From assembly GCA_973895155.1 (NCBI GenBank), contig OZ316897.1, forward strand, positions 23,225,455 through 23,289,454: a stretch of DNA of 64,000 nucleotides, read 5' to 3'. The position numbers and the translations under genes are program-made. Below are positions 16,603 through 44,420 of the stretch, piece by piece (position 1 is the first letter of the stretch; every line of letters begins with the position of its first letter). Source of the stretch: Marsupella aquatica. Taxonomy: Eukaryota; Plantae; Marchantiophyta. The notes under the pieces were generated by a model. That model was given only the letters and a program-made list of their open reading frames with translations, made no database searches and had not been told where the DNA came from.

Positions 16603-19600
16603 TCACCAGTAATCACCACAAGAACACATTCCATCTTTAAAATGGTGGAACCGATTTGAATCCCTTGCAATAATCTCGCGTCCGGTCACCTTAGAGATAT
16701 ACTTGGTTGCTGAGTGGCAATCTGAACACACCCGAAGGTTCTTACTCACACGAATAGGTTCTCCCCAAGGTAGGTGCATAAGTCCGTAAGCAATAGCCAA
16801 CTTCTCACTATGAGAGCAAAGGGCTAGCTCTTTATCCTCTTCACTGATATCATGCAATACAAGCTGGGTATCCGGAATGTAGCCTTCCGCCTTCAGTTTT
16901 TCACTCAATTTATTCAGCTCAGTATAGATCGCCTCCGCTTCTGGGTGAGATGTATCCCCCACCACAAATTCATGGATCTTGTTATGAACTTCGATCCAGC
17001 TACGTCCTGGCTCCTTCCGAACACCTCTCTCTTGCATCATAGTGCGCACAGATGACACCTTCTCCCACTTCCCAGCTGCAGCATAGATATTGGAGAGCAG
17101 CACATATGTAGAGGCCTTACCGGGTTCCAACTTGAAAAGCTCGTTAGCGGCCAGTTCACCCAGCTCCACGTTACCGTAAGTTCTACAAGCCCCAAGCAAG
17201 GCTGTCCAAGTTACATCATCTGGTTCGATCGGCATCTCACTGATCAACTGCTTTGCTTCTTCCACGTGTCCCGCCCGCCCAAGAATATCCACCATAAGGG
17301 TATAGTGAAAAACAGTACGCTCGATACCATAATCTTGCGTCATAGCAGAAAAGATTCTACGGCCATCATCAACAAGGCCTCCATGAGAACAGGCTGACAA
17401 CACAGCTGTGAATGACGTCTCGGTGGGCTTCACATGATCTGCATTCATTTGTCTGAAAAGTTCCAGGGCTTCCTGCCCATATCCGTGTTGTGCAAGTCCA
17501 CCGATCATTATGTTCCAAGTGACTACATCGCGTTTCTCCATTCTGTTAAAAACAAGTCTGGCGTCAGCTATACTGCCACTCTCTGCATACATGTGAACGA
17601 GTGCACTACCCACACGTAAATCCGACTCCAGTCCGGCTTTGCTAGCGTGGCCATGAACCTCCTTCACCCACTCCAAAGCCCCCGCACTTGCAGATGCATT
17701 CAGAATACTCACATAAGTGAATGCATCTGGTTCAAAGCCTTCGCGTCTCATTTGGAGAAACAACCGATATGCTTCATGCCCAGATCCATGTTGTGCAAGC
17801 CCTCCTATCATTACAGTCCATATGATTACATCGCGTTTCTCCATTCTGTCAAAGACCAGTCGGGCATCATCTATACTGCCAATCTTCGCATACATGTGAA
17901 CGAGTGCATTGCCCACCCGCAAATCCGACTCCAGTCCGGCTTTGCTAGCGTGGCCATGAACCTCCTTCACCCACTCCAAAGCCCCCGCACTTGCAGATGC
18001 ATTCAGAATACTCGCATAAGTGATTGCATCTGGTTCAAAGCCTTCCCGTCTCATTTGGAGAAACAACCGATATGCTTCATGCCCAGATCCATGTTGTGCA
18101 AGCCCTCCTATCATTACAGTCCATGTGATTACATCGCGTTTCTCCATTCTGTTAAAAACAAGTCGGGCGTCAGCTATACTGCCACTCTCTGCATACATGT
18201 GAACGAGTGCACTACCCACACGCAAATCCGACTCCAGTCCAGCTTTGCTAGCGTGGCCATGAACCTCTTTCATCCACTCCAGAGCCCCCGCACTTGCAGA
18301 TGCATTCAGGATAGTTACATAAGTGATTTCATTTGGTTCGAAGCCTTGGCGTCTCATTTCAAGAAACATTCGATATGCTTCATGCCCAGATCCATGTTGT
18401 GCAAGCCCTCCTATCATTACATTCCATGTGATTCCATCGCGTTTCTCCATTCTATCAAAGACCAGTCGGGCATCATCTATACTGCCAATCTTCGCATACA
18501 TGTGAACGAGTGCATTGCCCACCCGCAAATCCGACTCCAGTCCGGCTTTGCTAGCGTGGCCATGAACCTCCTTCACCCACTCCAAAGCCCCCGCACTTGC
18601 AGATGCATTCAGGATGGTCACATAAGTGATTTCATTTGGTTCGAAGCCTTGGCGTCTCATTTCAAGAAACATTCGATATGCTTCATGCCCACATCCATGT
18701 TGTGCAAGTCCCCCGACCATTACGTTCCATGTGACTACATTGTGTTTCTCCATTCTCTCAAAAACAAGTCGGGCGTCATCCATACTGCCACTCTTTGCAT
18801 ACATGTGGACCAGTGCAGTGCCCACACGCAAGTCTGACTCCAGTCCCACTTTGCTAGCATGCCCATGAACCTCCTTCACCCACTCCAAAGACCCCGCACT
18901 TGCAGACGCGTTCAGGATGCTCACATAAGTGACTGCGTTTGGTTCGAAGCCTTCCCGTCGCATCTGGAGAAACAATCGATAAGCTTCATGCCCACTTCCG
19001 TGTTTTGCAAGTCCACCGATCATTACAGTCCATGTGACTACATCGCGTTTGTCCAGTCTGTCAAAAACCAGTCGGGCGTCACCTATCCTGCCACTCTCTG
19101 CATACATGTGAACCAGCGCAGAGCCCACACGCAAATCTGACTCCAGTCCCGCTTTCCTAGCGTGGCCATGAACGTCCTTCACCCATGCCAAACCCCCATC
19201 ACATGCGGATGCATTCAGGATGCTCGTATAGGTGATTGCATTTGGTTCGAAGCCATCCCGTCTCATTTGGAGGAATAGTCGATATGCTTCCACACCATCA
19301 CCACGTTGTGCACATGCTCCAATCATAACATTCCATGTAATGACATTTCGATTAGTCAACTTTTCAAAAACTTTCCTTGCCTCGGTGATGCACCCACATT
19401 TAGCGTACATCAGTACGAGAGCAGACCCTACACGCACGTCCGATTCAAAGCCGGCATGTCGAATACCCTGATGAATTTCTTTTCCCCAATTGAGAGCTAA
19501 TGGGCTTGAACATGCATTCAGGATGCTCAGATACGTGATCTCATTCGGCTTCACGCCTTCTTGGCGCATTAGATTGAAAATTTCGAGTGCAGATTCAGCA

Positions 19601-20073
19601 TGATCACTCCTAGCGTATCCCGCAATCATGCTGGTCCAAGTGATAACACTCTTCTTCTGAATTTGATCAAAAACTCTACGTGCATCCGATATACCTCCGC
19701 ATTTGATATACACATTCAAAAGCGTGATTGCCACATATGGATTTTCGTGAATTCCACTCTCGATGATGCAATCATGAACTTGCTTGGCTCCTGAAAGGTC
19801 TTTCTGTTGCAAGCACATGTGCAGAACTTTAACATATGTGTACGAGTCTATAGCAATGCCTCGCTGTAGACGATCTTTCAACATAGCAATCGTTTGACCC
19901 GTGGTACCAGGATGCATATGCCTACTGCCAATCCGTTTTGCAGTGACTTGAGACCGATCTCTCGTGCAATAACTAACATTAAATGGAAATCTGCAGTGAG
20001 TAACCAAATTCGCCCTTGCCTTAACCCACGCTGGGGTTGACCATCCATCCACCCAAAGTGCTAGTCTTGTCAA
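16603..20073 (-). CDS. PLS-class pentatricopeptide-repeat protein with E1/E2/DYW cytidine deaminase domain (organellar C-to-U RNA editing factor)
   Basis: Uninterrupted 1156-codon frame (first ATG at 19917) with ~26 P/L/S repeats, PG box (KEPGRSWIE), HSEKLA, CSDCH and terminal DYW. The true start or upstream exons are uncertain. Confidence 0.97.
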   Translation of the reverse strand: MTRLALWVDGWSTPAWVKARANLVTHCRFPFNVSYCTRDRSQVTAKRIGSRHMHPGTTGQTIAMLKDRLQRGIAIDSYTYVKVLHMCLQQKDLSGAKQVHDCIIESGIHENPYVAITLLNVYIKCGGISDARRVFDQIQKKSVITWTSMIAGYARSDHAESALEIFNLMRQEGVKPNEITYLSILNACSSPLALNWGKEIHQGIRHAGFESDVRVGSALVLMYAKCGCITEARKVFEKLTNRNVITWNVMIGACAQRGDGVEAYRLFLQMRRDGFEPNAITYTSILNASACDGGLAWVKDVHGHARKAGLESDLRVGSALVHMYAESGRIGDARLVFDRLDKRDVVTWTVMIGGLAKHGSGHEAYRLFLQMRREGFEPNAVTYVSILNASASAGSLEWVKEVHGHASKVGLESDLRVGTALVHMYAKSGSMDDARLVFERMEKHNVVTWNVMVGGLAQHGCGHEAYRMFLEMRRQGFEPNEITYVTILNASASAGALEWVKEVHGHASKAGLESDLRVGNALVHMYAKIGSIDDARLVFDRMEKRDGITWNVMIGGLAQHGSGHEAYRMFLEMRRQGFEPNEITYVTILNASASAGALEWMKEVHGHASKAGLESDLRVGSALVHMYAESGSIADARLVFNRMEKRDVITWTVMIGGLAQHGSGHEAYRLFLQMRREGFEPDAITYASILNASASAGALEWVKEVHGHASKAGLESDLRVGNALVHMYAKIGSIDDARLVFDRMEKRDVIIWTVMIGGLAQHGSGHEAYRLFLQMRREGFEPDAFTYVSILNASASAGALEWVKEVHGHASKAGLESDLRVGSALVHMYAESGSIADARLVFNRMEKRDVVTWNIMIGGLAQHGYGQEALELFRQMNADHVKPTETSFTAVLSACSHGGLVDDGRRIFSAMTQDYGIERTVFHYTLMVDILGRAGHVEEAKQLISEMPIEPDDVTWTALLGACRTYGNVELGELAANELFKLEPGKASTYVLLSNIYAAAGKWEKVSSVRTMMQERGVRKEPGRSWIEVHNKIHEFVVGDTSHPEAEAIYTELNKLSEKLKAEGYIPDTQLVLHDISEEDKELALCSHSEKLAIAYGLMHLPWGEPIRVSKNLRVCSDCHSATKYISKVTGREIIARDSNRFHHFKDGMCSCGDYW
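17430..19250. repeat. 303-bp internal tandem repeat (one P-L-S triplet, 101 aa) within the PPR gene
   Basis: Shadow ORFs recur at 17717, 18020, 18323 and 18626, exactly 303 bp apart. Units are nearly identical at the DNA level. Confidence 0.95.
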
Positions 20074-20528
20074 CTTCTGATTGAACTCAGGTGCTCTGGG
20101 CTTCCTCTGTCAGCACCACAACCCACGATCAGATCTGCTACCAGGATAATATCCAGGAGATTCCACGAGGTGCAATGAATTTGTGGTTATTTCTGACGAC
20201 TATGTTTCCGGTGATCTTTCTACAATGAGTGTTCAGAAATGGATAGCAGACCGGTAAGCCTCTCGAGTTCTAGGGTGCATTCCTACCTCCGTCCAAAGGT
20301 GTATTTTCTTGTCTCCCTTGCTCTGCTGTGATCTTTGGTACAGATAACTTGCAAAAGTTAAATGACTCCTTTGCAACTTAGAGTAACGGCTATCTGTCAA
20401 GAATGCAATGATCTTAGAATAGAATATTGAAATAATTGTGAAAGGCTTATCCAGGTATCAACAAGCTCGTTCCTTCTCCCGTATTTCACTGTACCCACAG
20501 AAAGGACAGAGTCAAGAGCCTATCGAAT

Positions 20529-22203: not shown

Positions 22204-24340
22204 GGGCATCCCCACTGGTCGCGCCATTTGCGGGCTTGTCGCGCCATTTGCGGGCCTGTATTCGGGTTGTTTTCAGGGCCTGGGAAGGGCCGGGCCGTCG
22301 GTCCACCATTCACTCCGGAGGTGTCCCCCACCCAACCACTATAAACTGGGCCGGTATGTTGCCCGGTTTGAACTATCGGGTCAGTTTGGTCCAAACTGGC
22401 CCGATAGTTTGACCCGTGAGCGACAGAGTCTGTCTATCCCCACGGTTTACAGCTTTCCTCGCTCGTAGTGCTTTCCTCGCTCGTAGTGCTTTCTAATGCA
22501 ACGGTTTATGCAGTCTCAATGTAAGGATTCATGGATGTCCATCGCTGTTTCCCTCTTTTCGTTCATTCCTTTCCATTCCAATTCGGTGGCTGGCCGACGA
22601 CGGTCTGTTCCAATTCAATGGACGAGACACTGACATGTTCGCGTATACGCAATCAAAAATAGGAATTGATTTATTGACGTCCATCATTGGATCCCTCTTT
22701 TCGTGCTGTCCATTCCGAAGATCTTCCGGTCCAATTTGATGGACGAAGTATAGACATTTGCGTGCATCTCTATTGTCACGGTTCACACATCCTCCTTTTG
22801 TAGGGACTTGATTTACGGATGACTGTGTTTCTCTTCTTTCTCTTTCAATTCCTATTTCCCACGAGAGTTTGAGTAGTGTGCACATCCTCAGCTCTTGCAT
22901 GAACTAGGTCGTCCGTTGTTTTCTTAACTTCAGAGTTACTTGCTTTGTAGACATCGACCAGCTTTACTGGGTACAACTTTGGAATCAATTCACTAGCAGA
23001 ATGGCGTCGAAAACTGCAAATGCAAATGCGAGTGGAGCTAACACAAATGGAACAGGAACAACTATGGTGGGAGACTGTGACACTTTGTGGGCCAATGTCT
23101 CTGATGGATTATTATAGTAGCCATAGAATTCGTAAACGAGGTGGCTCTAGGCAAGGTAAGGCTGCCAATGTTGATCGGGAGAGACAAGAGGGGCATGAGA
23201 GAATTTGGAAAGATTACTTCCGTGAGCAGCCAGTGTACAATGACGTAAAATTCAGAAGGAGGTTCAGTATGAGGAAACATATTTTCTGGAAAATTCACGA
23301 TGCTGTTTGTGAGTATGACGCTTATTTTTTGCAAAAACGTGATGCTACCAACGTTCTTGGTTTGTCTCCGATTCAGAAGATGACAGCTGCTCTTCGAATG
23401 CTCTCTCTTGGAATTTCGGCCGATGCAGTTGATGAATATTATCGGATTGGGGAAACCACGGCTATGGAGTGTCTAAAAAGATTTGTTAGGGCCATTCGAG
23501 CAGTTTTTGACGGAGAATACCTTAGGCAGCCAACTAGAGAGGACATGGAGAACCAGCTCAAAATTAACGAGGACAGGGGTTTTCTTGGAATGTTTGCCTC
23601 CCTGGATTGTATGCATTATCTGTGGAAAAATTGTCCCGTTGCGTGTCAGGGATTGTTTATCAATAAGGACGGAGAAATATCAATTGTCTTGGAGGAAATT
23701 GCTGACCAGTCATTATGGATCTGGCATGCCTACTTTGGTCTGCCAGGAGCCAACAATGATATCAATGTATTGGATAGATCTCCACTCGTGAACAACTTTC
23801 TTAGAAGCGAAGCTCATGAGATGGGCTTCACAATGAACGGTAAAAACTATGATAGGTACTACCTTTTAACAGACTCCATATATCCTGATTGGTCAATTTT
23901 TGTTCCAACTATTCTGCTTCCACAAGGTGAGGCAAGGAAGTGGTTACTTTTCAAAATGCCAAGAGGGTGCACGGAAAGATGTGGAGCGTGCCTTTGGTGT
24001 TTTGCAGGCCAGGTTTGCAATTATCAGAAACCCTGCAAGGATTCATGACGTTCAAACAATCAAAGACATATGTTTAGCATGTGTCATCTTACATAATATG
24101 ATTGTCCAAGATGAGAGATTAGAGCAGTTACCAGAAGAATGGGATCAGGGATCAAGATTGCTGAGGCGGTTCAGTGAAGGTAGGAGGCTACCTGCAACAG
24201 ACTGGAAGCAATACTTAGCCGTCACATGCATTATTGAAGACACTTCAGTTCATTTTATGCTTCAAAATGACCTAGTAGACCATTTGTGGGCTTTGAAAGG
24301 TCGAGGGCATAGCTTTGATTATGTGAGCAATTCTGAGTAG
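22204..24340 (+). mobile_element. PIF/Harbinger element (left TIR candidate plus transposase); right end not identified
   Basis: GGGCATCCCCACTGG at 22204 resembles Harbinger/Tourist termini and is followed by subterminal repeats (gtcgcgccatttgcgggc x2) and the transposase. Confidence 0.55.
23020..24340 (+). pseudogene. PIF/Harbinger (Plant_tran/HARBI1-like) DDE transposase with a frameshift near 23940
   Basis: FRRRFSM, RDATNVLGLSPIQKMTAALRML, SLDCMHYLWKNCP, NNDINVLDRSP, YLLTDSIYP; then QEGARKDVERAFGVLQARF and ACVILHNMIV in the second frame. Confidence 0.9.
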
Positions 24341-26162
24341 TCTCACGCCTTGACTTCCTTTGTTGTCTTCCACAGAGGACCGCAAAAATACTTCGCTAGT
24401 GAAGTGCCCACGATGTGATAGTTCTCTAACTTTGCTAGTGAGGTTCATTCTTGCGATTGGTACTTGCAGTAACTGTGCATGTTCTGTTGCCGATTTGATT
24501 TTTGTAGCGAAAAGCCTAGTGATTGGAGGCCTCCTGCACTATTTTGACATGGATGGTGATTCACGCAGTTCAATTTTTAATTCATTTGTAGAACTGTGTT
24601 GTCAGTTGAACTTCCCTACTTTTCCCCTTACTACCTACCTTTGATAGACAACGATAGACAGATTTGTGTACATATTTTCGTTAAAGTCCAGACAATGATT
24701 TCCCTCAATCATGCACCCAGTCTTTTATGAAATTCCAATGTAGTTCTATCGAACAAAAAAGCTCTTTCTCATGTTGTGTAAAGAGTTTCATCAGTAAAAT
24801 CTGTGTGACCCAAATATCGTCTCTCCTTTCATTATTGATGTTCACTCTCCACGTGTGAAACTGTCTTGCAGCCCTGTTTGGTGTCCAACCTCGAGACTTC
24901 AATATTTATTCCCTGCGCTGTCGGATGAAGTTTGCCTCCAGAGTATTGCATAACAAGTAAAGCAATCTTGATTTTTTAGGGATGACAATTTAGAACCTTT
25001 TAAGTGTCCTTTACTTTAGGTCAATCGTCATTGCAAGATCCTTCTCTCTTTTCAATGAGATCCGGTTTGTCATTTACCTTAGTTTTATACGAGGTTCTGA
25101 TGTTCTGAAATTTACCTCTCTCACTGTGCGGCGAAGAAAATGATTAGCCACCTGTCAGATGTAAGTAGCTTGTGTCCACAATGATTTAGATATACAATCT
25201 CAAACCACAGCCCCACCAAGCTCACCAAATCTATTCCAACACTACTACATATTGGCCCCTTTTGCGAAGTTTTTTTTTTACGCCGGGATGGTCTTGCGAT
25301 GTCATCGACTTCAGATATTTTGTGATCAAACACGCATCACAATAAACCATGCTCACAGGTTCGCAACATGGTGTTGCGAAGCTAAATACCTGGCAATTTG
25401 TTTGAGATCAGATTGAATTCGCAACTCTTTCAGATACTATTCATCTCGCAAAGTATTTGTGGATCCGTGACCATCGCGACTGCATTTGGATCTCTTTTGT
25501 TTCATAATTTAGCGATAATAATGTACTCAAATATATATTGTGAACCTATTAGCTTCGCACAATATTGTGAAGCATAAATAGTCGCAAGTTACCGAATCCA
25601 GTTGATTCGCAAAGTTGAGAACACATTGGCATCACAATTACCGATGGTGTGTTATTCACAAAGTGTTCAGAAGTTGCTTCTTGACAAGCTTGAAAATGTT
25701 TTGCAAAGAGAGTTGTTTGAAAATTTTGTAGAATGGAAATGTTTGAGAGAGTTTCTTTACAAGATGGAGAATGCATGTGTTTAGGTTACAGCTAGGGTTT
25801 TCAAAAAGGTGGCATGCATGAGGATAGCTTTGGAAATGGCTAAGGTTGCATATATAACAGTGAGATGAAATTTCAAAGTCCAATTAAGTGTTTGTAAAAC
25901 AAAAGAAGAAAAGTAATATGTTAATATAAATAAAACCATGATAGTTAGTTTAGGGTCAAATTCTGGGCCCACAACAAGTTTTACTACTAGTGCATCAAAC
26001 CTGGTCCTCATCCTCGCCTCCATTTGACACAATAATAACGTCAGGTTTTTCCGAGATAATGGAACGGGACCGTGGCACATACGGTATAACAACTGACCAC
26101 TCTAGGTCTGGTGGGTACGGAATATAGAAACACTGCTCAAGGTGACTTGGGAATGTAAATGG

Positions 26163-29100
26163 TTAAGATGTTTGCCAATGAGATGGTTGAAAGCTAGTTG
26201 CTGATGTCTTCAGTCGAGTAAACCCACACTCATCAAGAAGTACCGTGCGATTATCACCAACCAGGTGAATTTTGAACCACTTACACTTGAAGACATACTC
26301 TTCAAATTTGGAATCAGCATCATAGGATATGATCAAGATCTCCTCAATCTTCCCATAGTGAGGCACCACATCTCTGATCACATTAGTGTCATGACGGCTA
26401 CTTTGTGAATCTTGCATGAACTGCCCTTGAACTCCACAATCAAAAGTTCTTCCCCTCTTCTCATCAAGGTCAGAAATCCTGAAATGCCTCCCTTGTGTCC
26501 ACATTGCTGTTCTGGTTTGAACAAGTCTTAAAGGACCATGAACAATTGTTCGAACCTCAGGAGTCATATCTGGAAAATATGATACATTCTCACCTTGGGC
26601 CACCATAGCATCCAACTGAAGTACTTTCTCCTTCATATACTCAAGGAACTTTGGAAAGATCTTTGGGCGACGACTCTCCCTCTTTGCATCCTCATAAAAC
26701 TCTCTCCAATCTTCCATCACATTGTTGTTACTCAACATGAAAGTACTAACCTGTGTCAACTCCACTGCGGTTAGTAAGCATGTTTTTTTTGCACCTGTTA
26801 AACGGTCCTCCTCCACTTCCCTCTCTTCCATCCAAGTGCATGGAAAACTAGGATCAATGGTAGCTAAGATGTTACTACAATAAAACATACTCTCAGCTGC
26901 CAAGTATCCAGTTGCCATGCTCCCCTCCACTCGTGCACGGTTCCGTACATAAGCCTTTAACACGGCCATATACCTTTCCACCTACAATGCACCGGACCGG
27001 CAATGGCAACCTCCCTCACAAGATGAACGAGAAGATGCACCTGACAATCAAAGAAGGAAGGAGGGAGGGCCTTCTCCAACTTGCATACCACCTCTGCTGC
27101 CAATACCTCCATCCGTGGTATCTCTTCTTCATATATTTCCTTTGAGCATATCCATCTCAACAAAGTGCCCAGTGACCAAAGGGCATCTTGCACTTCTTCA
27201 CTCCCCAAACCTATGATTGCCACAGGAAGTATATGTTGTAGTAAACGATGATAGTCATGTGTCTTGAGATACATTGGCCATTTATGACTGTCCTCCATCC
27301 CAAAAGCCTTACGTAGATTGGCACCATAGCCTGTAGGAAACCGCATCTGCCCTATGCGTTGTCGAAACTCTCTTCTTTCACCAACACTCAAAACCCATGG
27401 AGCTGAAGGACGATGTTCCATCCCTATGGATTCATCAACTGTTATCCATACATCTGGATGTCGTTCTAGATCCTGGCATGCCTCCCTAAAATTAATGTTC
27501 TTTTCCCCATAAAAGTGCTTGATCAAAGCCTTCCCAACATTTCCCTCTATATGCATGGGGTCTAACAAGTGATGAATCTTCAACTCAGGCCAATAGGGCA
27601 AAGTGGCCAGTATACCCCACCTTGTCAATCCACTACCATCAAATCCCATGGCATCTTCAGGGTCTGCCACCCTATCAGCTATGGATTTCCAATACGAAAA
27701 TGTTGTGCGGTCAGGTATCTCACGCTCATCACCATTGATCATGTCAAAGTCTGAAAACAAAAGGGGGTCAGACCTCATGTGATGCCCAAGTGGAAGAAAC
27801 TTGGTATGACCAAGGTAGATTATCTTGTGCAGCCATTTTGAGTACTTGGCCATATCGTGAAGGCTTGGACCACAAGTGGAGCATGCCTTGTACCCTTGAG
27901 TTTGGAACCCAGAAACAAACCCAAACCCTGCTCACAAAATAACATTCTCAATTAGAGTCAAAGGAATTGAAAAGTTCATGTACATAGAATTAAAGAGGGA
28001 CTTTCTTCCAAACAAACTTGATCTCCAATACATGAAAAAAATACAAATCCATACCACTCACCTGGATAGTCATGCATGGTCCACATAATGATTCCCTTCA
28101 ATTGGAAGACACGTGGTAACCCTCCTGTAGTTGTCCGACCATCATATGCCCACACACCCCCCCATAATTTATGGAGTTCCCCAACCAAGAGCGCCAAGTA
28201 GGTGTCCATGTTTTTTACCTTAGATGGACCTGGGATAATCAATGATAGCAATAAGAATCCCTTTTTCATGGACAACCATGGGGGAAGGTTGTAATTCATA
28301 ACAACCACCGGCCAAACTGAAGTAGGGCGCCCTTTCCCTCCAAGGGAGTGTGGGCTTACCCCATCTGATGCCAACCCCAACCTCACATGACGAGGGTCAC
28401 GTGCAAATTCTGGCCATTGTGACTCCACATGCTTGTGAGCAGGGGAATCAACTGGCAACCGCATGACACCGGTCTCTGATCGATGTGTCTTATGCCATAC
28501 CATCAATTATGCCAAGTCAGAACATCGGTACATGTGCAACAATCGAGGAATAATAGGAAACCAACGAACAACTTTTCTAGGCACCTTTGAGGTCAACATG
28601 TTGGTTTCATATCGAGGCTCTTGACAAATTGGACACTCAGTTGCGCTGGCATTGGTCTCATGATAGAGAATGCAGTCATTCACACAAGCATGAATGATAT
28701 GGTATTCCATGCCAATGGATGATAGAACCCTCTTTGCCTCCTTCCAAGTTCCTGGCAACACATTTTCACTAGGTAACAAGAGATCATGGCAAATTGCAAA
28801 CAAATCCGATAGTAGCGCATTGCTTGCCTTGTGTTTTGCCTGAAGATTCATCAATGCCAAGATGGCAGATAGTCTATTCAAACGAGCACCCCCATAAATA
28901 GGTGTTCTAGCATGTGCCTCAGCTTCTTCCCATTGTTTTTGTCCTTCAGGTGTACGTTGAGGCCTTGGATCATGTGCAACATTTGGTGGAGGGTCTCCTT
29001 CATTGGGTGGGACACCTCCTTCACCACCAATATCTACACCAAACCAATCTGTCATGAAGTCATCCATGGCTGACTCTTGGTCTTGCATGACCTCATAATC

Positions 29101-30561
29101 TGTCCGAGGTGCCCCTTCATCTGGACTATCATTATCATTGTCACTTGATGAGGAATCTGCTAATGATGTTTCCCCGTCTTGTGGCAAGCCCATTTCTTGA
29201 TATGTAGCTCTCAACCTCCTTGGCAACATATCTTGACTAGGCCGCACATTCTATAGACAATACAATAAAGTATTCACAATGAAATTAACGCCAAATATAG
29301 TAGTGCTCGAAACATATTATTAACAATATAAAAAGAACATGTCATTACAAAACATACGTTCACATACGATGAACGTATAATACATGTCCCTAAAGTAATC
29401 CTAATCCCATTCATAATGTGTAAACAACTCCTCTCCAGCCAGAATGGTCCTATTAGCTACAACTAGACAATGGTCATGATGATATCTCTGCCCATAAGGG
29501 GTTGGAGGGGGACCATCAACAAAAACCCATTCACAGTTTTTCCTATGCTTAGACCGGGTCCCCACAGTACTGTTGATGAAACCGGCAATATTCCCACTAC
29601 GGATGGGATCACCATCAATTATACGCTGGTCACAATACTTTCTGGTGCAACCATCAAAAGTATCCATGTCCAATGCATAAGTCTTCCACTCAGGGTGTTG
29701 AACAAGGATCATGTTCCAATGTCTCCTCTTGTAAATGGGTCCACCATACGGGAACAACGTTGGTCCATCTGAAGAGCGCCCTTTTCCACCCATATCATCC
29801 ACAATAATGTCCTGACAAGAGAAAATCCCATACCCATGCCTCTCCCCTAGGGTCGAACTCTTGACAACCCAACGTCTTCCCCAAACTTCTATCTCCTCAC
29901 CATAGGTTATATCACATGGCAAACCAAGGCACTCCGGATTCCAATCCTTTATGATAGGAACACACTTCCCTGTGAAGGTACAAGGGCCCCATCTACCATC
30001 AACCCTACAAGTGTACTGATCCACTTCCCCTCTAGGCTGTCTTTTTGACTTTTTTTCCCTCTTGTAACAATACCGTCACCCTTAATTGTCCCAACACTAC
30101 CTTGCCCTGCTGCCACTAAATGAAAAGCTTGTGAAAGTGCCGAGCCTATAGCATCTAGAACTCCTTGTGAGGGAACATAGGGTGTTGGTGTAGTGGGTGT
30201 AGGCCTACTGGATACCTATAGGAAGAAATGGAACCAAGTGAGTGTGATGAACCTCCCAAATTTTATTTTATGCTACCTAGCAAGATTTACAAAATAAAAT
30301 GGAAATCACAGTAAGTTTACAACTCACCATACGGGATGAAGAAGCTCCCGGTGTAAGACCTCGATGTTGGCCATATCGAGCAATGTGCTCCGCACATACA
30401 TATGACTTTTGGACAACCATCCCCACACATTTTTTACAACCACAAAGTTGGCGTGGTGGACCACTAGGTCGACGTACGGTTGGTTCAGGTTGAGGAGGAG
30501 GATGACTTTCTTCATCGGAAGAGGAATCTGATGTGGTGGAAGTTGTAGAGGATGAAGACAT
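26163..30561 (-). pseudogene. CACTA TnpD transposase (transposase-associated, Transposase_21, DUF4218 and DUF4216-like regions), intron-containing and disrupted
   Basis: LCGCKKC...HIARYG; IHACVNDCILY...CPICQEPRY; RHVRLGLASDGVSP...NYNLPPW; WTMHDYPG; LDPMHIEGNV; LKTHDYH; FFDCQVHLLVHL; MERYMAVLKAYVRNRARVEGSM; YGKIEEIL...FKCKWF. In-frame stop at 28507 and a frameshift near 26975. Confidence 0.92.
29401..30215 (-). CDS. SET-domain (lysine methyltransferase-like) exon embedded in the CACTA transposase gene
   Basis: VKSSTLGERHGYGIFSCQDI; FPYGG; YAL; IDGDPIRSGNIAGFINST; NCEW; VANRTILAGEELFTHY are the SET motifs in canonical order. Open frame 29401-30024; putative acceptor before 30215. Confidence 0.75.
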
Positions 30562-30989
30562 CTGACAAGTATAGCAATTGGAAGGCGATTAGTAAAAACT
30601 TCACCAAAACCATCATTGATAATCCCTACCTAAACATATTAAAAAGAATTGACAGAAAAATACCTTTATGAGACCCGGGCTTAGCAATGCCTTGACGGAT
30701 CTTGTGGCTCAAATTTCATGAACCAAATCTGGAAGGAGGGGAAAATCTGCCAATATACAATGAATTAAGCCATGCCTTATGGTGAACCAGAAAAAAAGGA
30801 TGATAGATTGTAACCCTCCATATTTACAGCAATGACTAGAAATGCATGAGAAAATGTTATACCTTTCAGATGCCCGGGCTCTCGCAAGGCATTATCATGC
30901 ATTAGCCAAAACTTTAAAAAACATGGGGAAGTGCCCTACAACGCCAAAGAGTTTTCCTCTCCATGTTAATGAGATAGACAAAGAAATAT

Positions 30990-31860
30990 AAGTAACCCAA
31001 ACCCTACCCTAAACCCAAACCATGAAATGAAACCCTTCATTAAAACCTAACCCAAATCCCTCAATCACCCTAAACCCTTACCCTTATCCTAACCAATACC
31101 CAAATCCCTCATTAAAAATTCAAACCTTTACCCTAAACCCAAACCCCTACCCTAAACCCAAACCATGAAATGAAACCCTTCATTAAAACCTAACCCAAAT
31201 CCCTCAAGCACCCTAAACCCTTACCCTTATCCTAACCAATACCCAAATCCCTCATTAAAATTTCAAACCTTTACCCTAAACCCAACCCAAATCCCCCAAT
31301 TACATATAAAACTCTTACCCTATCTACACCTTACTTTACCTATATAGGCCAACCCCCACCCCTATAGTTATTCTAAACTTCACCCTAACCCCTAAATTGA
31401 GGCCCTTTTTTAAAACTTAAGCAAAAATTGTACCCCCTCAATTAGAACCAAATCCAACCCTATATCATGTTACACCCCAACCCAAACACTTACATTAGAA
31501 ACCCAACCCCTTTAAAAAAACCACAATTAAACCCCCCAACTAAAAACCAAACCCAATCCCTTTAAAAAACAACCACAATTCAACCCCTCAACTAAAACCA
31601 AACCCAACCCCTGTAATTACTCACAACCTAATGCAAACCTCTACCTTGAACCCTAAGCCAAACCCATTAATTTAAACCCAACCCTTTTATTCCAACCTAA
31701 CCCAAGTTTTAACCCCCTTAATTAAACCAAATACTCCTAGATTAAAACCAAATATAAACCTAACCTTTAATTAAACCCAAACCTTTGTTAACTTATATTC
31801 TAGTTATCCTTACAACCCAAACATCCATTGACACCCCTTCCATGTTAACTTATGGGCACT
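30990..31860. repeat. Degenerate telomere-like (CCCTAAA/AAACCC) low-complexity tract with a ~145-bp internal duplication
   Basis: Strong C/A strand skew. The block catgaaatgaaacccttcattaaaacctaacccaaatccctc occurs at ~31021 and ~31164. Confidence 0.8.
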
Positions 31861-32282
31861 TAACATACCTTAAATGTCGTTTGACAAACCTTAATAGCCG
31901 TTTGACACCCCAAAGTGTTTTCCAACCCTAAACCGATAAGACCTGCCTCGCAAATTATTTCACAAGTTAGAGAATCTTTTTGCGAACCTACGACCTTCGC
32001 ACTTGCTTCGCAAAAATAGAGGCCGAGAATGATTTTTTGGGTCTTCTACGGGTTGCGATGGCTTTGCGAAGGGAATAGATTCGGAAGTGCCTCGCAAGTT
32101 GCGAGACTATTTGCGAGGGCGCGGGCTTCGCAGTTTCCCATGCGTATGTCATCGCAAACCCGTTTTTGAACGGCGTAAACATCGGCGGGAGCTCGCATTC
32201 GGGCTCATTTCAGTTTTTGAGCAAGACGAGAAGGGCCGGGGTGCGCGCAACAGTACGAGGGAGACTGTGAGAGAGGGGAGCT

Positions 32283-34323
32283 ATGGCTACCGGTGAGGGG
32301 AGTGGAGGGCAAGGTGGTAGTGGTAGTGGTAGTGGCAATGGGGGAAATCCAGAGAAAGAGAAGAATGCCTGGGCAGACTTAGTGGCCCAACATCTCAGTG
32401 CTGCACAATTGGGAGAAGTGAATCTCAATTCTCCAGCAGGGCTTGCCTCTTTGAGTGCCATTCTTGGACAGGTTTTGCAAACTGGGATTGTAGCAGGACA
32501 AGCTACTAGAGAGGGGGAGGAGAGGGCCGCAGCTGAAGAGAAGGCTAGAGAGAAAAAAAGGAAGAGAGAGGAAAGAACTAAGTCGGGAGTTGCCTCTCCT
32601 CAAGCCCTAGAGAAGCAGAAGAGAAGAGAGGAGAGAGATTCAATTCGAAAACAGAGGGAGGAGCAACGTCAGAAAGAGGAAGCAAGAAAAAAACTTCCAT
32701 TCATTGCCTTGGAGACGAGTGGGACTCCAACTGAGGTAGCGTATGCAGGGGCTAAGAGCACAATCAAGCAGATTATCACAAGCAATTTCTCACGAGGCAT
32801 GCAGTGGGGGAAGATTGAGAAGGCAGAGCGAAAGAGGGTCATCAACCAAATCAAGGATGCATTTCGCAATGGGCCTGACATAGATGAGCAATGGTTGGCA
32901 GATAAGATTTCAAATTCTATGTCTCAAATGCGATACCATGACAAGATGAAGATTAGAGCCCACCTGAAAGACTTGAGATCATACAGGAACTTGCGCAGAC
33001 CCCTCCACTTCACCGAGGACATCTGGAATTTGTTTTACAAGATTGAGGTGCAAATTAAGGTAGCTCACGAGTTGGAAGAGTGGAAGGGCAATCTAGATCG
33101 AGCCTTGAAAGCAAAGGAGGCAGGGAAGCTCCCCCCTGACCACGACCTGAAGCCACTTGAGCAGAAGGTAGCTGAGATGCAGAAGGTGACCGACCAGGAG
33201 GGAAAGCCACCCAAGCGTTTCACAGATGCAGCCAAACGAGTGAAATCCACCCCCAATCCAGTCCACAAGTTGGGTCAAGGCGGGCTCCCCGGCCTCAAGT
33301 CACACTTTGTGAGTGCCTCTTGCTCCTCCCTAACCTCTCTATTCCTTTCAGAGTTGTGCAATGCAAGTGAATGACATCCCCGAAGGTTCTTGCTGTTGTG
33401 CATGCTTGCTTGGTTACTAGTTTAGGGCAACTCTGACACTTAGAATTTCTGGCAAATTTTTAAAAACTCTCGGGAACACAGTTTGCGAAGGTGTTGCGAT
33501 GCGTATTTGTTCGCAAACCCCTCGCAAAGTCTATCATAGACTTTTTCCATTTCAATTTTCTGATGCCTTTGCGAACAAATGCGCATCGCAAACTCCATCG
33601 CAACGCCTTCGCAAAAAAAGGTGGTTCGCAAGTTGCTATGCTTATAGGTTCGCAAATTTGAATTTTAAATTTTTTTTGGGTCACGTTTAGTAGTTGAGGA
33701 TTTAGGCGTCACTTGTGGCTATAGGGTATGCTTAAGGGCAAATTTAACCAATTTTAATTGGTTTTATGCATGGCAGTATCGGAGGTACAAAAGGAAGATA
33801 TCAAAAAAGCATATTGAGGTGGCGATAGAGCATGGACGAAAGTACCTCTTTGCGATGGTAGATGCCGAGTTGGCTACTATAAGTGTCTAAGTGTGAACCA
33901 TATGATTAGCATGAAAACATTGTGAGTGACCCTTTATGTCTTGCGGAAACTAATGATATGTAATGGATGCAGGATTCGGATGAGCCTGAGGGGTCGGGTG
34001 CTGATGTGACCAGTAGTGATGACGATGAGGGGGCTACTCCTGGTACTAGTGGTGCTCGGGGGGGGAGTAGTCGTGAGGTAGGTTCTTCCCACCGTGGTAG
34101 TGGTGGTAGTCGTGTGTCATCAGCACACGTTGATGACCAGGGGGAGGAGGAGGACCCTGAGGATGAGGAGGAGGAGCAGGAGGGGCAGGAGGAGCCAGAG
34201 GAGCAGCAGGAGCAGGAGCGCCGACGGCCATCACGCACCCGTCACCAACAGGATCCCCGGAAGGATAAGGGCAAGAAGCCAGCCAAGAAGCCAACCAAGA
34301 GGAGCCGCAAGAGCCCATTCTAG
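32283..34323 (+). CDS. CACTA second gene (TnpA-like accessory protein), probably spliced
   Basis: 363-aa ORF from ATG 32283 with a GTGAGT donor at 33309. Later exon-like segments at ~33776-33880 and 33973-34323 (acidic, then a basic NLS-like tail). Lies inside the CACTA TIRs, divergent from TnpD. Confidence 0.55.
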
Positions 34324-37300
34324 TTATTTTGTAGAGATACATGCATGAGAGTGACTTGTCATGCCGGAGCTTAGGGTAGGAAGAGGCAGCATAGGTTTAG
34401 AAGGGCGGACCTAGCATCAGATATTTCCCCCCTCTTGTCCATGTATAGGGTTCTTTGAAGCCCTATCATTTTGTTCATGCTTTTCCATTTTATAAAACAA
34501 CAATTTTGCCTTCCACATTGGGTTCCAAGGAAAACCCCTCGCAAATAATGTATTGAATCCTGTGTGATCATAATTTTGCGAACCCTTTAAGAACTCATTC
34601 CCATCGCACAATATTAACCCCAAGGCGTCGCACTTTTTGAGTCAATTAACTTCAGAACTTCAGATCCAAATATGTCGGGTTTTTGTGATACTTCTAGGAT
34701 CGCACTTTCCTAATCGCAACTGTTCACAAACTTCTGAAATCACCGGTATCGCTCTTTGTCATACAATCCCCATCAAAACAATTGAACCAGTATCAATCGC
34801 AAATATGATGCGATGGTAAATCCATCTCAAATATTGACGCCCGCGCGGGACGTGTGCGTGTATGTTTGCGAACCTTATGCGACGTATAATGGATCGCAGA
34901 AGTATTGAATATTGCGAACCTCTCAGCTTCTCAGTTTGCCATGATGTTGCGATGCCGTTGCGATGGTCCGCGTGCGAAGTTATTAGGTTCGCAAAGTGCG
35001 AAGGGGGTGCGATGCGCGTATGTTCGCAATAGCCAGAATTATGAAAATCAGGGGCTTGTTAGTTGCGATGAGATTGTCTTCGCAAAACCGGCTGATAGTG
35101 TTGTAGTCCAAGAGCTCTCAAATCCCAACTTTCTAAGCTGAAGTCCTTGGTGTAGGATAGTCGCTCTAGATGTGTCAATCGGGTAATTGTAACGTGCGAG
35201 CAAATAGTAGAATTTTTTCTTGCACAAGCAAGTTTTCCCCTTTTATTGGGGCCCAAAATGAGGTCCGAAAACTTCCTCCCTAGCATAAAGACACCTTGTG
35301 ATCACAAAAAAGGAGAAGGAAATGGCATTGAAAATGAGGAAACCTGAGCATATTCGTGTGACCTGAATGTACACGGACCAAAAATTAGGACTGATTTTTA
35401 CTCGACAACTCTTGCCACCTGTTTTAACCTCCATGTCGAATCACTATAAATGACTTTCGCTTCAGGCCAGCAAAATCGCTAGTCCAATCACGCTCACACT
35501 TTGGGTCACTCACACGAGGTACGGGCTCCCACATGGGAAAAATCCTACCCGAGGCAATGAAAAAATGGAAAAGTACAGCGCAATCCCTACGTGACAAGAA
35601 TCCGCACTTCATTAGTGACGAGTCAAGGATGATTAAGGCCGTTTGGAACCTAATCATGTCACATGCGAGTGAACGAGAGAATTACCGTTCCAAACCCAAG
35701 GGGAACCCACTTAAGCAAAGCTTGTCAACCCAAAACCTCCAGTGTTTGGAAGCGTTCTCCCGATCATTTCCTCCTTCTCGAGCTGGACCACACTCGCGGA
35801 TTCGGAACTGCTCTCAGTATTACAAGTCCTCAGCGCTCACCCAAATCAAGTTTGGGTACGCGTCTCTTTGCTATGGCTTTGAATGTTATTCCAGTGAAGA
35901 ACTCTTTGTGAAGGCATTCGATGTTTTTCAGCGTGGAAACGCTTTGCATTTCACTAGTGGATTTCATTTGTGATCATTGTTCTGTTATTTTAAGTGCAAA
36001 GAAATGTTTGGAGTTCCAGCAAATCCTTCTAATGGGAAATGGCAACTCGAGGTCCAGCAGTACAACCCAGCGACGGATGGCCCTCTGGAAGCTGACTCTC
36101 CGCCGAAGCGTCAAACCAATGCAGACATTGGCAAGGTCTCCGCGGGTAGCAGTGTCCCAATTGCACTTGTTCAAAAAGATCCATGTGGTGGGTCATCATC
36201 ATCATTGGCGCAAACACCCACGCCACCAAAGTCAGGTCAACCAGTGAAGTCTCCACTGAAACCAAAGATGAGACACGGGGCGAGGCTGCAACGAAGAGGA
36301 AGAGGCTTGCAAAAGAGGAGCAATATTGGATTGAACAGGAGATCCATGACTACTGGACCGAGAAACGCCTTGCCTCTTCCGATTATGATTCGGAGTCGGA
36401 CACAGACTCTGATGCTTACAAGGCCGCCATCCCCTGAGAAGAGACTCAGTTTCTGGGGTTTACGGACCTCTTCCATGTTGAAAGAAGCATGACATGTACT
36501 CTCAAGATGTATATGAAGTAAAGTTCATGTGTTTATGTCTTGTCTGTTTTGTCCACGGATGACTTGAACAACATTCAAGTCTTTGACTCTTTCTATCCAA
36601 CTTCTGCACCTCTTTGTCGTTGAACATGTCTCTTCTTAGAGAGACAAACATGGACCCTTAGTAGACTAGCAAGATTGCTAGTATAATACTGAAATCATTT
36701 ACATCTTTCCAACTTCAACCATATAGATCCTAGTCTTCAGGTTGAATCTGTTACGGGTTTAAGTTGAGAACATGTTGTCAACAGAGGAAGACTGTAACCA
36801 CTACACTGAACCCATTTAGCAGCCAAGAACTTGAATGTTGTTTAGTACTATCAGCCTATTCATTAAAAGTGTATTATTATTTGATTTATGTACATTTGGG
36901 CAATGAAAAGTGTACATTTGGCCAATGAAAAGTGTACATTTGGGGATAGAAATATGTACAATTGGCCTAAAGAGTGTACATTTTGGCAATGAAAAGTGTA
37001 TATTTGAGCATCAAAATAGGTACATTTGGCTTAAAAATTGTTCATTTGAATACATGTGGCCTAAAAAATGTACAATTGAGTGAAAATGCATACATTTGGC
37101 TTTAGAAGTGTACATTTAAGTGTATTTGGTCTAGAAAGTGTAGCTTTGAGTGCAACAAAGTGTACATTTGGCCTAAAAAGTGTACATTTCCTAGCAACTC
37201 TTATTATAATCATTTAAAAGAAAGGAATGAATAGAAAAATATTTTTATTTATGCAAAACAAACAAACATTCATATTCATAATGATCAAACCTTTAGAAAA

Positions 37301-37463: not shown

Positions 37464-40400
37464 CTACTTGTCCATCCTTTGGAGATAACTTTGGACAGTT
37501 TGTAGAACATTTCGAGGAATCTTCAAACCTCTGCCCGCCATGTTTTCTTCTTTCATTCCAGATTTAAAACCATACATTGCAGAATTTGCATACTGCCAAT
37601 GTTGAGTGTTCTCACCAAACCCTGGATCGCGTTCCCACGTCTTAGTGGACATGAAACAGTTTAGATACCGTGCACTCTCAGTCACATCAAGTTTAGAGTG
37701 TTTAGGCCTCCACCATTCGACTAGAAACATTGGAGCATATTGTTGAGGCAGATGAGGGTTTGTTGAAGCAGTAGTTGGGACTTCATGCTTAGGGTCCACT
37801 GAACCCAAAGCTCTCACCAACCAGAAATGCCCTCCACCATTTTTCTTCTCCCAATCATCCTCGGGTCGAAGAAATACAAAGTTCCCTTCACGAATATCCT
37901 GTAGGGGAATCCACCGTCCTTGTTCTCTCTCAGCTTGAGATCCAACAAATGGTGTTGCTTGATCTTCCATCTCTTCCAAGACCTCATTTTGAAGAGCTGC
38001 CATCTCTGCATTCTCCTCATCATTCTTCACTTGGAGGACCACTTTGTTCTGGTTGGTTGACCTTGTAACCAGTGCCGTGGTTAGTCTTAGGCCAAAACTC
38101 ATTTTTCAAGGGAAATTGATTATTTCCCTCCCCTTCTAGTGCGAGCCCATTTGTCAACAACTCCACAATTCTCTCCCAATATTTCACAAGAGGAAATCTT
38201 TCCTTATATGCTATAGATGTCTCATCAGTGCAACTCTTTCTCAAAAAATCAAGGTACTTGTTAAGAAATGGGATAATCTCTTCAGATTTTTTGTGTATCT
38301 CTCCAATGGATTTAGCTAAGGGCTCTCCACTAGGTAAAAGAAGAGAATTTGTTGTCAGATCTGTTGCCCAAATGCACCTTCCACCAACTGGAGCCCAAGC
38401 CTGCTTTACATGAGACTTATACTGAAAAATATTGGTACATTATCTCTCATAGAGAAAAGAAATGATACGGGTTTTGAGTGACCTTGAATATCTTTAACCT
38501 TGAAAGTTTGAAGATATTCTTTGTAAGATGCAACTTCTTGTATCAATCTGGGAACTGGATGAATGCTCTCACATTCCCAAACCTCTGCCATAAGAGCAAG
38601 GAGAGTTGCAACTTCCTTGTGCTGAACTTGATATGATACCTTCAAAAAGAGTGCATCGACATCTTCATGCGTATGACCAACCATTAGAAAAGACATTTGA
38701 ACAGTTTCAAATACTCCTCTACTCACAAGCTCACTACAAAATGCCATGACAGTCTGGTTTTTGTTATCCTTTGCTGAATTATCCATTTGCAATGTTAGGT
38801 GCCTTGGCAAGGGCTTGAAAGTTGGACTGCCTTGTTCCCCATGCATGTCCCCTCCTTGATCCTCACCATGTTGGGTGGAGACCGTCTCCGTCTGACTCTC
38901 GACTGCATCTTCAGAACCAATATATATACCGATTCATTGGAATACCCTTTGGTTCCAAATATCCCTTAAAAAATGCATCAAAGTCAAGAAGGGCTTGAAA
39001 GAAAGGTCTATGAGGTTCCAAATAAAGGCCATCCAACATGTCACCTGTCTTGTCTCCATTGTACTCCTCAAGGTCTCGAAGACACTTAGCCAAGGATGTC
39101 ACCGTGAAATCGGCATCTCCTGGCCAAAGACCAGTGACACTAAAGTGTGCATAAACTCCTGGATCCCTTCCGTGGGTCAACATCCCTGTGAGAGCAATAG
39201 GTAGTGGCATTCCATGACCTGAAAGCGATTTAGGAGTACTGACCATTTTTGGAATCCACGTCTTTGCTTGATCCATCTTGTCATGAATGATGCAAAGATA
39301 TTCTCCTGGATGTTGCTTGGCCATCACTCGATGAGCATAATAAACATATCTACGTGACATTTGCTCATGAAGATGTTGCGCTCGTTTTTCTTCAATTTCA
39401 GCACGTTCTTTTTTCCTTCTTTCTCACATCAAAATATCTTTGTATTCACAACAAAGAGTACACTTGGCAAATGCGCCATCTTTATGGAAACTAAAGTTTG
39501 CGAATGATTTGCTCCAAATCTTGTACAGAGTATTCTCTGTAACTGGAGGAAGCCCCTCTTCCTTCATCTTTGTTCTCACATCTTCTAGAATCTCCAACTT
39601 CTTGTAACACGCTGGAAGACGATACTCAATGGAGTCTGTTCCATGAGCCCCAGCATAAGGTATATGAGGCATGGGCTCCGCATTTCGAGTCAAAAAATCC
39701 TCCAATAGAGCTCGCGCATGCAAGGTATTTGACCTTGTTTTCATGGAGCCTGTGTTTCCATGGAACCCAATTTTGCAACCTTCCACAGATCTCCTTTTGT
39801 AATCATAATATTTTGTGTGGCTAAAGCCATGGATGATTGCAAATGCATGTCTACATACGACCATACCCTTGAGAACATGGTGCCCCTTATCACGAACATC
39901 ATCTTCTCTATAGTGGAAGAGGTTGAAAATGTGTGATGTTTTTGACTCGCTAGACATACCGTGAAATTCTATCCGAATATCTTCTATGTCTTCTCTTGGC
40001 ATAGTCAGACAACATTTCTGCTTGCAACAATTCTCTCTTTTAATTTCATCAATCGAAGCTTCCGTTGTTTTTGAAATTGCCTTGGTTTCCAACAACCTTC
40101 TCTTCTTTTCAATCGGATCTACATGACTCCTCTTGTTGAAATTGTATGGCCTTGTGCGCGGCATTCCTTTGTCATTTATATTTGGACAGAGATCATCCCT
40201 ATCCACTGACTCCATCCTCTCTGAACCTTCAACCAAAATGTCCGACAAAAATTTCCCATTTGCAAGTAGTTTTGTTGAATCAATTCGCCATCAAACCAAA
40301 GTAATTACTCCCCTATGGATGTTGGGAAAGTATTGTGATTCCACCACATCTTTCACAGCAATCCCGACATGGTCCTCGCCAAGGATTTCATCATCAACCA

Positions 40401-41217: not shown

Positions 41218-41354
41218 TCTTTCACCTGCACAATTTGAAATGTAAATTATTAGTTAAAGATGATCCCAACTAGGAAGCGAAAAGTTGTCAATCCTATCCA
41301 AGGACAACGCATATGAAGCAAAAAAAAACCTGAACCTAATACTCACACTACGTC

Positions 41355-43919: not shown

Positions 43920-44420
43920 CCGGACAGAGATCATCCTTGTCCAGTTGGATAGAGATGATCTCCATCCAAGTAGACGATAGTGATGATTTCTATTAGTAAT
44001 TCGATACGGATCATTCCCATCCTGTCCAGTTGGATAGAGATGATCTTCATCCAAGTAGAGGATAGTGATGATTTCTATTAGTAATTCGATACGGATCATT
44101 CCCATCCTGTCTATGGATAGAGATCATCCCTGTCCAGTTGGATAGAGATGATCTCCATCCAAGTAGAGGATAGTGATGATTTCTATTAGTAATTCGATAC
44201 GGATCATTCCCATCCTGTCTATGGATAGAGATCATCCCTGTCCAATTGGATAGAGATGATCTCCATCCAGTGATGATTTCTATTAGTAATTCGATACGGA
44301 TCATTCCCATCTTGTCTATGGATAGAGATCATCCCTGTCCAGTTGGATAGAGATGATCTCTATCCAAGCATAGGATAGTAAAGTTGGATAGAGATGTTAG
44401 TAATTCAATACAAATCGTTA
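43920..44420. repeat. ~105-bp tandem repeats containing the same palindrome; the array resumes at 48421-48745 after the LTR-like insertion
   Basis: Units ggatagagatcatccctgtccagttggatagagatgatctccatcc...tagtaattcgatacggatcattccc. Perfect palindrome ttggatagagat-g-atctctatccaa at 44343-44367. Confidence 0.9.

Follow-up and report, generated by a model that had tools for sequence, protein, structure and literature searches.

A conserved SET-domain exon within the transposase gene of a CACTA element in the liverwort Marsupella aquatica, with predicted use of the transposase's first exon

The transposase gene and its SET segment

We analysed a 64,000-nt stretch of the genome of the liverwort Marsupella aquatica (GenBank assembly GCA_973895155.1, contig OZ316897.1, positions 23,225,455 to 23,289,454), hereafter the window, whose minus strand carries the transposase gene of a CACTA (En/Spm) element with a SET-coding segment between its first exon and the exons for the transposase TnpD. 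All coordinates below, like those of an earlier note made from the sequence alone, are positions in this window, and the features of the gene were taken from the minus-strand sequence together with a listing of open reading frames (ORFs) and their translations. The earlier note had placed there an exon 1 with its donor, two alternative acceptors reading ctatag and a SET stop codon at 29401; each of these positions is borne out. From the start codon onward, the gene consists of the following parts.

30328 to 30561, minus strand: exon 1, 234 nt or 78 codons, with its ATG at 30561-30559; ORF and sequence reading
30216 to 30327, minus strand: intron between exon 1 and the SET exon, 112 nt, GT..AG
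29401 to 30215, minus strand: SET exon, stop codon at 29401-29403; identified by Pfam SET, an AlphaFold model, and Foldseek and VIA matches
29251 to 29400, minus strand: spacer from the SET stop to the distal acceptor, 150 nt; intronic if exon 1 is joined to TnpD
28062 to 29250, minus strand: first TnpD exon, an acidic linker and then the start of Transposase_21
27928 to 28061, minus strand: intron within TnpD, 134 nt, with borders G/GTGAGT and CAG/, linking ...MHDYPG to FGFVSG...; read from the sequence
25995 to 27927, minus strand: rest of the TnpD coding region, with the end of Transposase_21, DUF4218 and the C-terminus

Exon 1 codes for a Ser-rich acidic stretch followed by a Cys/His motif of the form C-x-C-x2-C...C-x2-H-x6-H (LCGCKKCVG...YVCAEHIARYGQH), and its last codon, the ATG at 30330-30328, is directly followed by GTGAGT at 30327-30322, giving a phase-0 donor. 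The motif had been called transposase-associated; the Cys/His residues are indeed present, but the match of exon 1 to the Pfam family Transpos_assoc (PF13963) reaches 16.7 bits, below the cut-off of 27.7.

The last base of the proximal acceptor, cctatag, is 30216, and the exon that follows opens at 30215 with VSSRPTP.... The frame entered there (VSSRPTPTTPTPYVPSQGVLDAIG...) runs into a stop, and the SET frame, offset from it by one base, is the ORF at 29401-30075, a translation of 224 amino acids that ends in ...EELFTHYEWD before the TAG at 29403-29401. The two frames meet at a run of seven A (T7 on the plus strand) at 30050-30056, which locates the single-base frameshift that had been suspected in the T-runs of 30042-30056. 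The SET exon's conserved N-terminal portion reads PYVPSQGVLDAIG..., a TAG stands immediately before 30215, and in the window an in-frame ATG comes no earlier in the exon than residue 95 of the SET frame, beyond the GxG motif.

The distal acceptor, tctatag, ends at 29251, and the exon behind it opens at 29250 with NVRPSQ.... The frame from 29250 is open into TnpD, as had been reported, but the ORF is bounded by the TAG of the acceptor itself, so that phase 0 is automatic and the agreement of phase carries little weight on its own. Pfam scans place Transposase_21 on 27976-28506 with 137.8 bits and, with 28.0 bits, on the exon that follows, and match DUF4218 further along the gene; the TnpD part from 29250 shows no N-terminal Cys/His module of its own.

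The SET assignment, for which a Pfam profile search and a Foldseek search had been proposed as checks, is upheld by both. Pfam SET (PF00856) matches the SET frame with 27.5 bits (cut-off 22.4, E = 4.5e-06), and among 25 family representatives scanned in the same way 16 match at E ≤ 0.01 and nine score over the cut-off. The single SET frame finds no match among PDB sequences by phmmer, a PHROGs search gives no match, and an Atlas search for the SET product returns SET-like and nothing more specific. A structure model from 17 close relatives, with a predicted local distance difference test (pLDDT) score of 45.9, was superseded by an AlphaFold model from 51 aligned relatives, with a pLDDT of 88.2 and a predicted template modelling score of 0.83. 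A Foldseek search with the SET model gives 271 matches in PDB at E ≤ 0.001, SET8, LegAS4 and MLL1 ranking first, and a profile of the 51 sequences finds LegAS4-type SET domains best among PDB sequences (E = 4.6e-05 and 5.3e-05). As modelled, the SET fold is real.

SET domains are recognised by a GxG motif, an NHS motif and a catalytic Tyr, and we counted their conservation over the 51 aligned relatives, some positions being covered by 47-48 sequences. In GxG, G81 is kept in 49 of 51 and G83 in 50 of 51; the Y/F-x-G motif has Tyr in 41 and Phe in 10, with its Gly in all 51; Asn stands at the NHS-motif position in 46 of 51, and a further downstream Asn is invariant (51/51); and in E-L-x3-Y the Glu (E216) is found in 47 of 48 and the catalytic Tyr (Y221) in 45 of 47. 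Canonical N-H-S is absent: the sequence reads I-N-S-T, and the His position is occupied by Ser in 49 of 51 relatives, family-wide. This GFINST variant had been taken as a reason to doubt activity; it is the state of the whole family and aligns to YINFS of a solved LegAS4-type SET, with Phe at the His position, and it therefore gives no sign of decay. The LegAS4/RomA-type SETs of Legionella (PDB 5czy, 8sr6, 8swi) are the nearest solved sequences, with 23-26% identity in structural alignments, and share with the family an IN-x-S in place of NHS.

The SET protein also ends three residues past the catalytic Tyr, without a post-SET region. Together with the replaced His and a Pfam score barely over the cut-off, this would suit a catalytically inert SET-like module, acting as a reader, decoy or scaffold that binds histone tails or the transposase. 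We regard such a module as unlikely, given that among the 51 relatives GxG, the Asn residues of the motifs and the catalytic Tyr show 88-100% conservation and that the nearest solved SETs, of the LegAS4 type, also lack the His (YINFS) and have been reported to be active methyltransferases. The motifs suggest that the product in question is likewise likely to be an active lysine methyltransferase.

Conservation among bryophytes and state of the window copy

A profile search over 1.84 billion representative sequences returned just 123 representatives at the threshold of E ≤ 0.001, and no canonical host SET protein at that threshold. Twenty relatives were looked up, of which eight carry names, all eight of them liverwort, and a separate search adds several Sphagnum species and Calypogeia. 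Judged by these sequences, the SET family is a small separate clade that travels with CACTA transposases.

The predicted product of exon 1 and the SET exon has counterparts among annotated proteins of other bryophytes. A Calypogeia fissa protein of 351 aa (P0001) is 75% identical to the window, against 65% for Sphagnum, where the S. jensenii protein P0004 (343 aa) belongs to a cluster of 360 sequences; in P0001 and P0004 alike a homologue of exon 1 is fused to SET, the junction coinciding exactly with the window's donor and proximal acceptor. N-termini homologous to exon 1 are found in these two, in P0039 and in L001, a 2-kb metagenome contig, and a Cys/His N-terminus with SET occurs again in Riccia sorocarpa (P0058) and in the Logan sequence P0061, both below 50% identity. 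L001 carries a matching ATG exon and an intact SET frame of 262 codons, and its intron follows the identical codon (...SSSQM) in the identical phase and measures 111 nt, against 112 nt in the window. A second metagenome match, L002, covers 24 residues on a marine contig and was set aside as irrelevant. We also dropped the likeness of the distal acceptor between the window and L001 as evidence, the resemblance being too weak in a shuffle test: when the acceptor block was aligned to the end of L001, 53 of 2000 shuffles reached its score, and another segment of the window aligned better. MAFFT alignments of the introns were uninformative.

Over 209 codons the window and L001 differ by a nonsynonymous divergence (dN) of 0.23 and a synonymous divergence (dS) of 0.91-1.27, a dN/dS of 0.18-0.25 that is approximate, as dS (0.9-1.3) is close to saturation; identity by codon position is 78% at first, 82% at second and 54% at third positions. 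Such figures indicate purifying selection on the SET exon. Whether sister elements keep it in frame had been put forward as a check, and in those compared, from mosses and liverworts, the exon is both conserved and in frame.

The exon order extends into the transposase in some annotated proteins. Sphagnum P0044 holds exon 1, most of SET and then a homologue of the exon at 29250, and BLASTP with the first TnpD exon finds P0044 at 59% identity over 95 aa and Riccia P0128 at 43% over 157 aa. Riccia P0098, P0120 and P0128 pair SET-family sequence with Transposase_21 (3/25 representatives, and 3/8 of those of at least 400 aa). On this comparison mosses and liverworts share one order, with the Cys/His exon first, the SET exon next and then the TnpD start, and by the long models, chimeric as they look, the gene order is shared by three bryophyte lineages.

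The same models could be taken to mean that SET and transposase are made as one protein, a donor within or at the end of the SET exon removing the stop to give a single zinc finger (ZnF)-SET-TnpD chain; primate SETMAR is a transposase with a built-in methyltransferase of this general kind. Riccia P0098 (773 aa) does continue from a complete SET C-terminus into Transposase_21, and P0044 and P0128 connect part of SET to TnpD. A stop nevertheless falls right after ...HYEW(D/N/S) in the window, in L001 and in 16 of the 17 sequences of alignment A1, and the fused models are automatic annotations in which catalytic parts of SET are lost or shortened; we think a fusion quite improbable.

The state of the window copy was judged against contigs of four sequencing runs (X1-X4). 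At the SET frame break, the run at 30050-30056 is one base short, an extra T belonging behind 30049; this T is present in 604/604 of the depth in X1 and in 31-45% in X2-X4, where the shorter, frame-breaking run makes up 55-69% of local word depth, so that many copies must lack an intact SET frame. The nonsense codon at 28507-28509 is contradicted by a C at 28509 in 1467/1467 (X1), 128244/128949 (X2), 210436/212524 (X3) and 5599/5673 (X4), and that at 26163-26165 by a C at 26165 in all four runs. At 26976/26977, X1 has 13 extra bases (635.5/635.5 depth, one contig), which are found in none of X2-X4. Four lesions thus leave the window copy dead: the frameshift in SET and, in TnpD, two nonsense codons and the loss of 13 nt. 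Lesion-free versions exist for each of the four, with SET-frame-intact versions in all four runs; as a lesion, the frameshift belongs to this copy or its subfamily. Among the 40 best-supported of 253 differences in 25500-31500, transitions with A/T in the window against G/C in the others number 20 and the reverse 7, an A/T bias that fits deamination-type decay of a silenced copy.

A SET frameshift accompanied by three TnpD lesions is also what one would see had a fragment of a host SET gene been captured once and left to decay neutrally. The layout common to mosses and liverworts, a dN/dS of about 0.2, the conserved catalytic motifs and the frame-intact versions in all four runs speak against such a capture, and we give it hardly any credence.

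Predicted splicing of exon 1 and the proposed roles of its products

We consider it probable that the locus is a decayed copy, about 9.9 kb long, of a CACTA (En/Spm) element whose conserved SET exon is predicted to be spliced to exon 1; the resulting protein, some 350 residues long, is likely to be active as a lysine methyltransferase. Splicing from exon 1 to SET is strongly implied in the window's lineage: since the SET exon lacks an ATG of its own there, its conserved N-terminal part could be translated only by way of an upstream splice, and the TAG in front of it and the conserved intron point the same way. Splicing from exon 1 to TnpD would follow from the clean acceptor at 29251, the want of an N-terminal Cys/His module in TnpD and the precedent of En/Spm. 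Neither the joint 30328/30215 nor the joint 30328/29250 occurs in the contigs of the four runs of unknown kind.

The SET exon might instead belong to a nested or neighbouring accessory gene that shares no exon with the transposase, so that one of the two products would not use exon 1: either exon 1 and SET make up a small gene of their own, ahead of a TnpD gene that has its own start, or SET is a stand-alone gene in the first intron of the transposase gene. Annotated models that contain exon 1 all carry SET or read into the intron, and an exon 1 joined straight to TnpD is seen in none of 14 exon 1 relatives (0/14). Sphagnum-type SET exons moreover possess an in-frame ATG (MTPPPY...), and a nested stand-alone SET gene is possible in copies of that type. 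Against a separate gene, the SET exon of the window's lineage has no ATG ahead of its catalytic core, just 150 nt separate the SET stop from a TnpD exon that starts at a ctatag acceptor, TnpD from 29250 onward lacks an N-terminal Cys/His module, and the intron between exon 1 and SET is conserved in position, phase and length. We judge a gene without a shared exon to be somewhat unlikely.

Several of these observations weigh against a shared first exon serving an active methyltransferase and a transposase, and should be seen together. Transpos_assoc is absent at E ≤ 1 from all 12 related sequences scanned, and exon 1 itself matches it below the cut-off. The lack of any exon 1-TnpD joint among the relatives and the ATG of Sphagnum-type SET exons have just been described, and the proteins that link SET to TnpD (P0044, P0098, P0120, P0128) look like chimeric gene predictions. 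To these are added the missing NHS His and post-SET region, the near saturation of dS and the prevalence of the frame-breaking run in X2-X4.

If the shared exon is real, exon 1 would be alternatively spliced past the SET exon and its conserved stop onto the TnpD exons at 29250, and one transcription unit would yield a ZnF-SET protein and a ZnF-transposase, much as En/Spm yields TnpA and TnpD. Through the common N-terminal module the methyltransferase could be recruited to the element or into the transposase complex, where the SET product may methylate a histone or another protein at the element to the element's benefit. A histone-modifying or anti-silencing role of this kind had been suggested for the locus; here, too, it is a conjecture. 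We would go further only tentatively, with the odds against us: the Cys/His module of exon 1 may be the homing device of two enzymes, locating the element's ends for the transposase and guiding the lysine methyltransferase to that same DNA, and the SET protein a self-targeted writer of a protective or licensing chromatin mark, or a methylase of its own transposase, kept since before mosses and liverworts split.

The element, its surroundings and comparable transposons

The candidate extent of the element, with its terminal inverted repeats (TIRs) and other features, is as follows.

25240 to 35108, minus strand: candidate whole CACTA element, 9,869 bp, from an imperfect TIR, CAA/CAA flanks and word depth
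25240 to 25269, plus strand: TIR at the 3' end of the transposase gene, beginning CACTACTACA and reading CACTACTACATATTGG... at 25240
35079 to 35108, minus strand: TIR at the 5' end of the transposase gene, its reverse complement beginning GACTACAACA and reading GACTACAACACTATC...
33483 to 35086, no strand: subterminal cluster of TTGCGA/TCGCAA, with more clusters at 25262-25612 and 31948-32157
32271 to 33374, plus strand: ORF without a known family, 367 aa, Lys/Glu-rich, divergent from the transposase gene and of the same high word depth

The two TIRs match at 8 of the first 10 bases and at 24 of about 31 aligned positions (word-7 BLAST), the outermost base of the right one departing from CACTA, and the candidate ends are flanked by CAA at 25237-25239 and 35109-35111, a putative 3-bp target duplication. 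In a chance test, 2 of 250,000 position pairs reached at least 8/10 together with an identical 3-bp flank. Simple scans for exact CACTA...TAGTG terminal pairs found none, and long inverted repeats at 40-44 kb, considered as element ends, proved to be part of another repeat array. The interval 24,000-36,500 holds 19 of the window's 30 TTGCGA and 24 of its 29 TCGCAA words. Word depth in X1 and X4, which in contigs of the runs is not the same as copy number, is about 10-50 times higher at about 25.1-35.3 kb than in the flanks (22.7-24.7 and 35.3-36.7 kb), and the high depth extends 100-230 bp past both candidate ends, so that the element, whose ends are candidates on this evidence, may sit inside another repeat. 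The window contains no second copy of it.

The 367-aa frame has neither a Pfam nor an Atlas match, and Pfam recognises no TnpA-like family among the frames of the element. An acidic frame of 119 codons at 33964-34323 (plus strand), also inside the element, divergent from the transposase gene and without a known family, may together with the 367-codon frame represent the element's second gene. Upstream of exon 1 lie tandem repeats that are C-rich on the plus strand, at 30994-31285 (143 nt x 2, 98% identity) and 31499-31616 (51 nt x 2.3); they fall between exon 1 and the TTGCGA/TCGCAA cluster at 31948-32157, in a region of GC skew -0.36 (30-32 kb). A telobox in these repeats was considered and rejected, AAACCCTA occurring five times in the window against 2.1 expected, and once in the repeats.

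The content of the window is mostly mobile DNA. Adjoining the CACTA element is a PIF/Harbinger-type 'Plant transposon protein' frame at 22951-24340 (plus strand; PF04827, 168 bits), whose word depth of about 20-60 in X1 indicates a low-copy element. Two frames match DUF7869, at 2197-4155 (plus strand, 146 bits) and 38406-39423 (minus strand, 130 bits); the latter stands beside a dense palindromic array at 40179-44381, with units of about 26 nt (GGATAGGGATGATCCCTGTCCAA-like) and very high word depth, and the two are probably another DNA transposon family with subterminal palindromes. A non-long-terminal-repeat retrotransposon remnant with RVT_1 and zf-RVT lies at 50226-52798 (plus strand) and a retrotransposon gag with a zinc knuckle at 61240-63183 (plus strand). 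A frame of 747 codons at 55164-57407 (plus strand) matches N6_N4_Mtase at 25.3 bits, below the cut-off of 26.7, with no SET match seen in it, and is followed by a NIF-type phosphatase frame at 57697-58665 (plus strand); its methylase family is also that of the red-algal Plavaka PAG2. At 16603-20109 (minus strand) an intact intronless frame encodes a PPR protein of 1,168 codons with E, E+ and DYW deaminase domains, of the organelle RNA-editing factor type, which fits a bryophyte or other early land plant.

Among transposons with comparable organisation, EN/SPM is close in layout: in maize, and in Arabidopsis for EN/SPM3 and EN/SPM7, alternative splicing of a single gene produces TnpD and TnpA (PMC13547354). 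The Marsupella element resembles it in its Transposase_21 TnpD, candidate CACTA-type ends with a putative 3-bp duplication, and subterminal repeats, and in having one transcription unit predicted to give two proteins with a common first exon. It differs in that the second product is a Cys/His-SET protein and not TnpA, the exon predicted to be shared is coding, and the SET exon precedes the TnpD exons and has a stop of its own; the splicing is here a prediction.

SET genes aboard DNA transposons are themselves on record. Genes for a SET histone methyltransferase are found on HarbingerS and on MuDR families of Phytophthora (Kojima & Jurka 2014, as cited in PMC12730594). As described there, they likewise are DNA transposons with a conserved accessory SET gene, but of other superfamilies and hosts, whereas here SET is an exon within a land-plant CACTA transposase unit; this comparison is one of descriptions. 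PAG2 of the red-algal Plavaka elements (EnSpm/CACTA) includes an N6-adenine DNA methylase and SET, and Helitron captures of SET genes are recorded in the same preprint (bioRxiv 10.1101/2025.02.11.637652). PAG2 belongs broadly to the same superfamily and is an anciently retained accessory containing SET that is proposed to act on the element's chromatin; it is a separate gene of a three-gene cassette with a DNA methylase, and the bryophyte protein, by contrast, is a small ZnF-SET that would share the transposase's exon, without a methylase. The VANC anti-silencing proteins of VANDAL (MuDR) elements in Arabidopsis, for which sequence-specific binding and a hypomethylation effect have been demonstrated experimentally (PMC10398659), are also transposon-encoded accessories, and the SET protein is proposed to act comparably on the epigenetic state of its own family; they are, from the same description, not SET-family enzymes, and their effects are experimental where that of the SET protein is a proposal.

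We found no paper on a SET exon in a land-plant CACTA element in the literature searched, with Repbase Reports and subscription journals outside the search. The statement in the earlier note that such an exon is not a standard CACTA feature holds to that extent, though within this bryophyte family the exon is standard. SET accessories on transposons are therefore already known, and a SET exon inside a bryophyte CACTA transposase gene adds a new variant to them.

Few transposons bring chromatin enzymes of their own, and bench studies of those that do are scarce. The land-plant CACTA family described here retains, in mosses and in liverworts, a small SET protein whose catalytic motifs are intact and which appears to borrow the transposase's first exon. 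For genome annotation this means that the "SET domain-containing protein" models present by the hundred in Sphagnum and liverwort genomes are transposon genes and not host chromatin regulators. If the protein is active, it would be a compact natural case of a mobile element that recruits to itself a methyltransferase of histones or other proteins; such a case could be tested in bryophyte models and would bear on how transposons escape or tune silencing.

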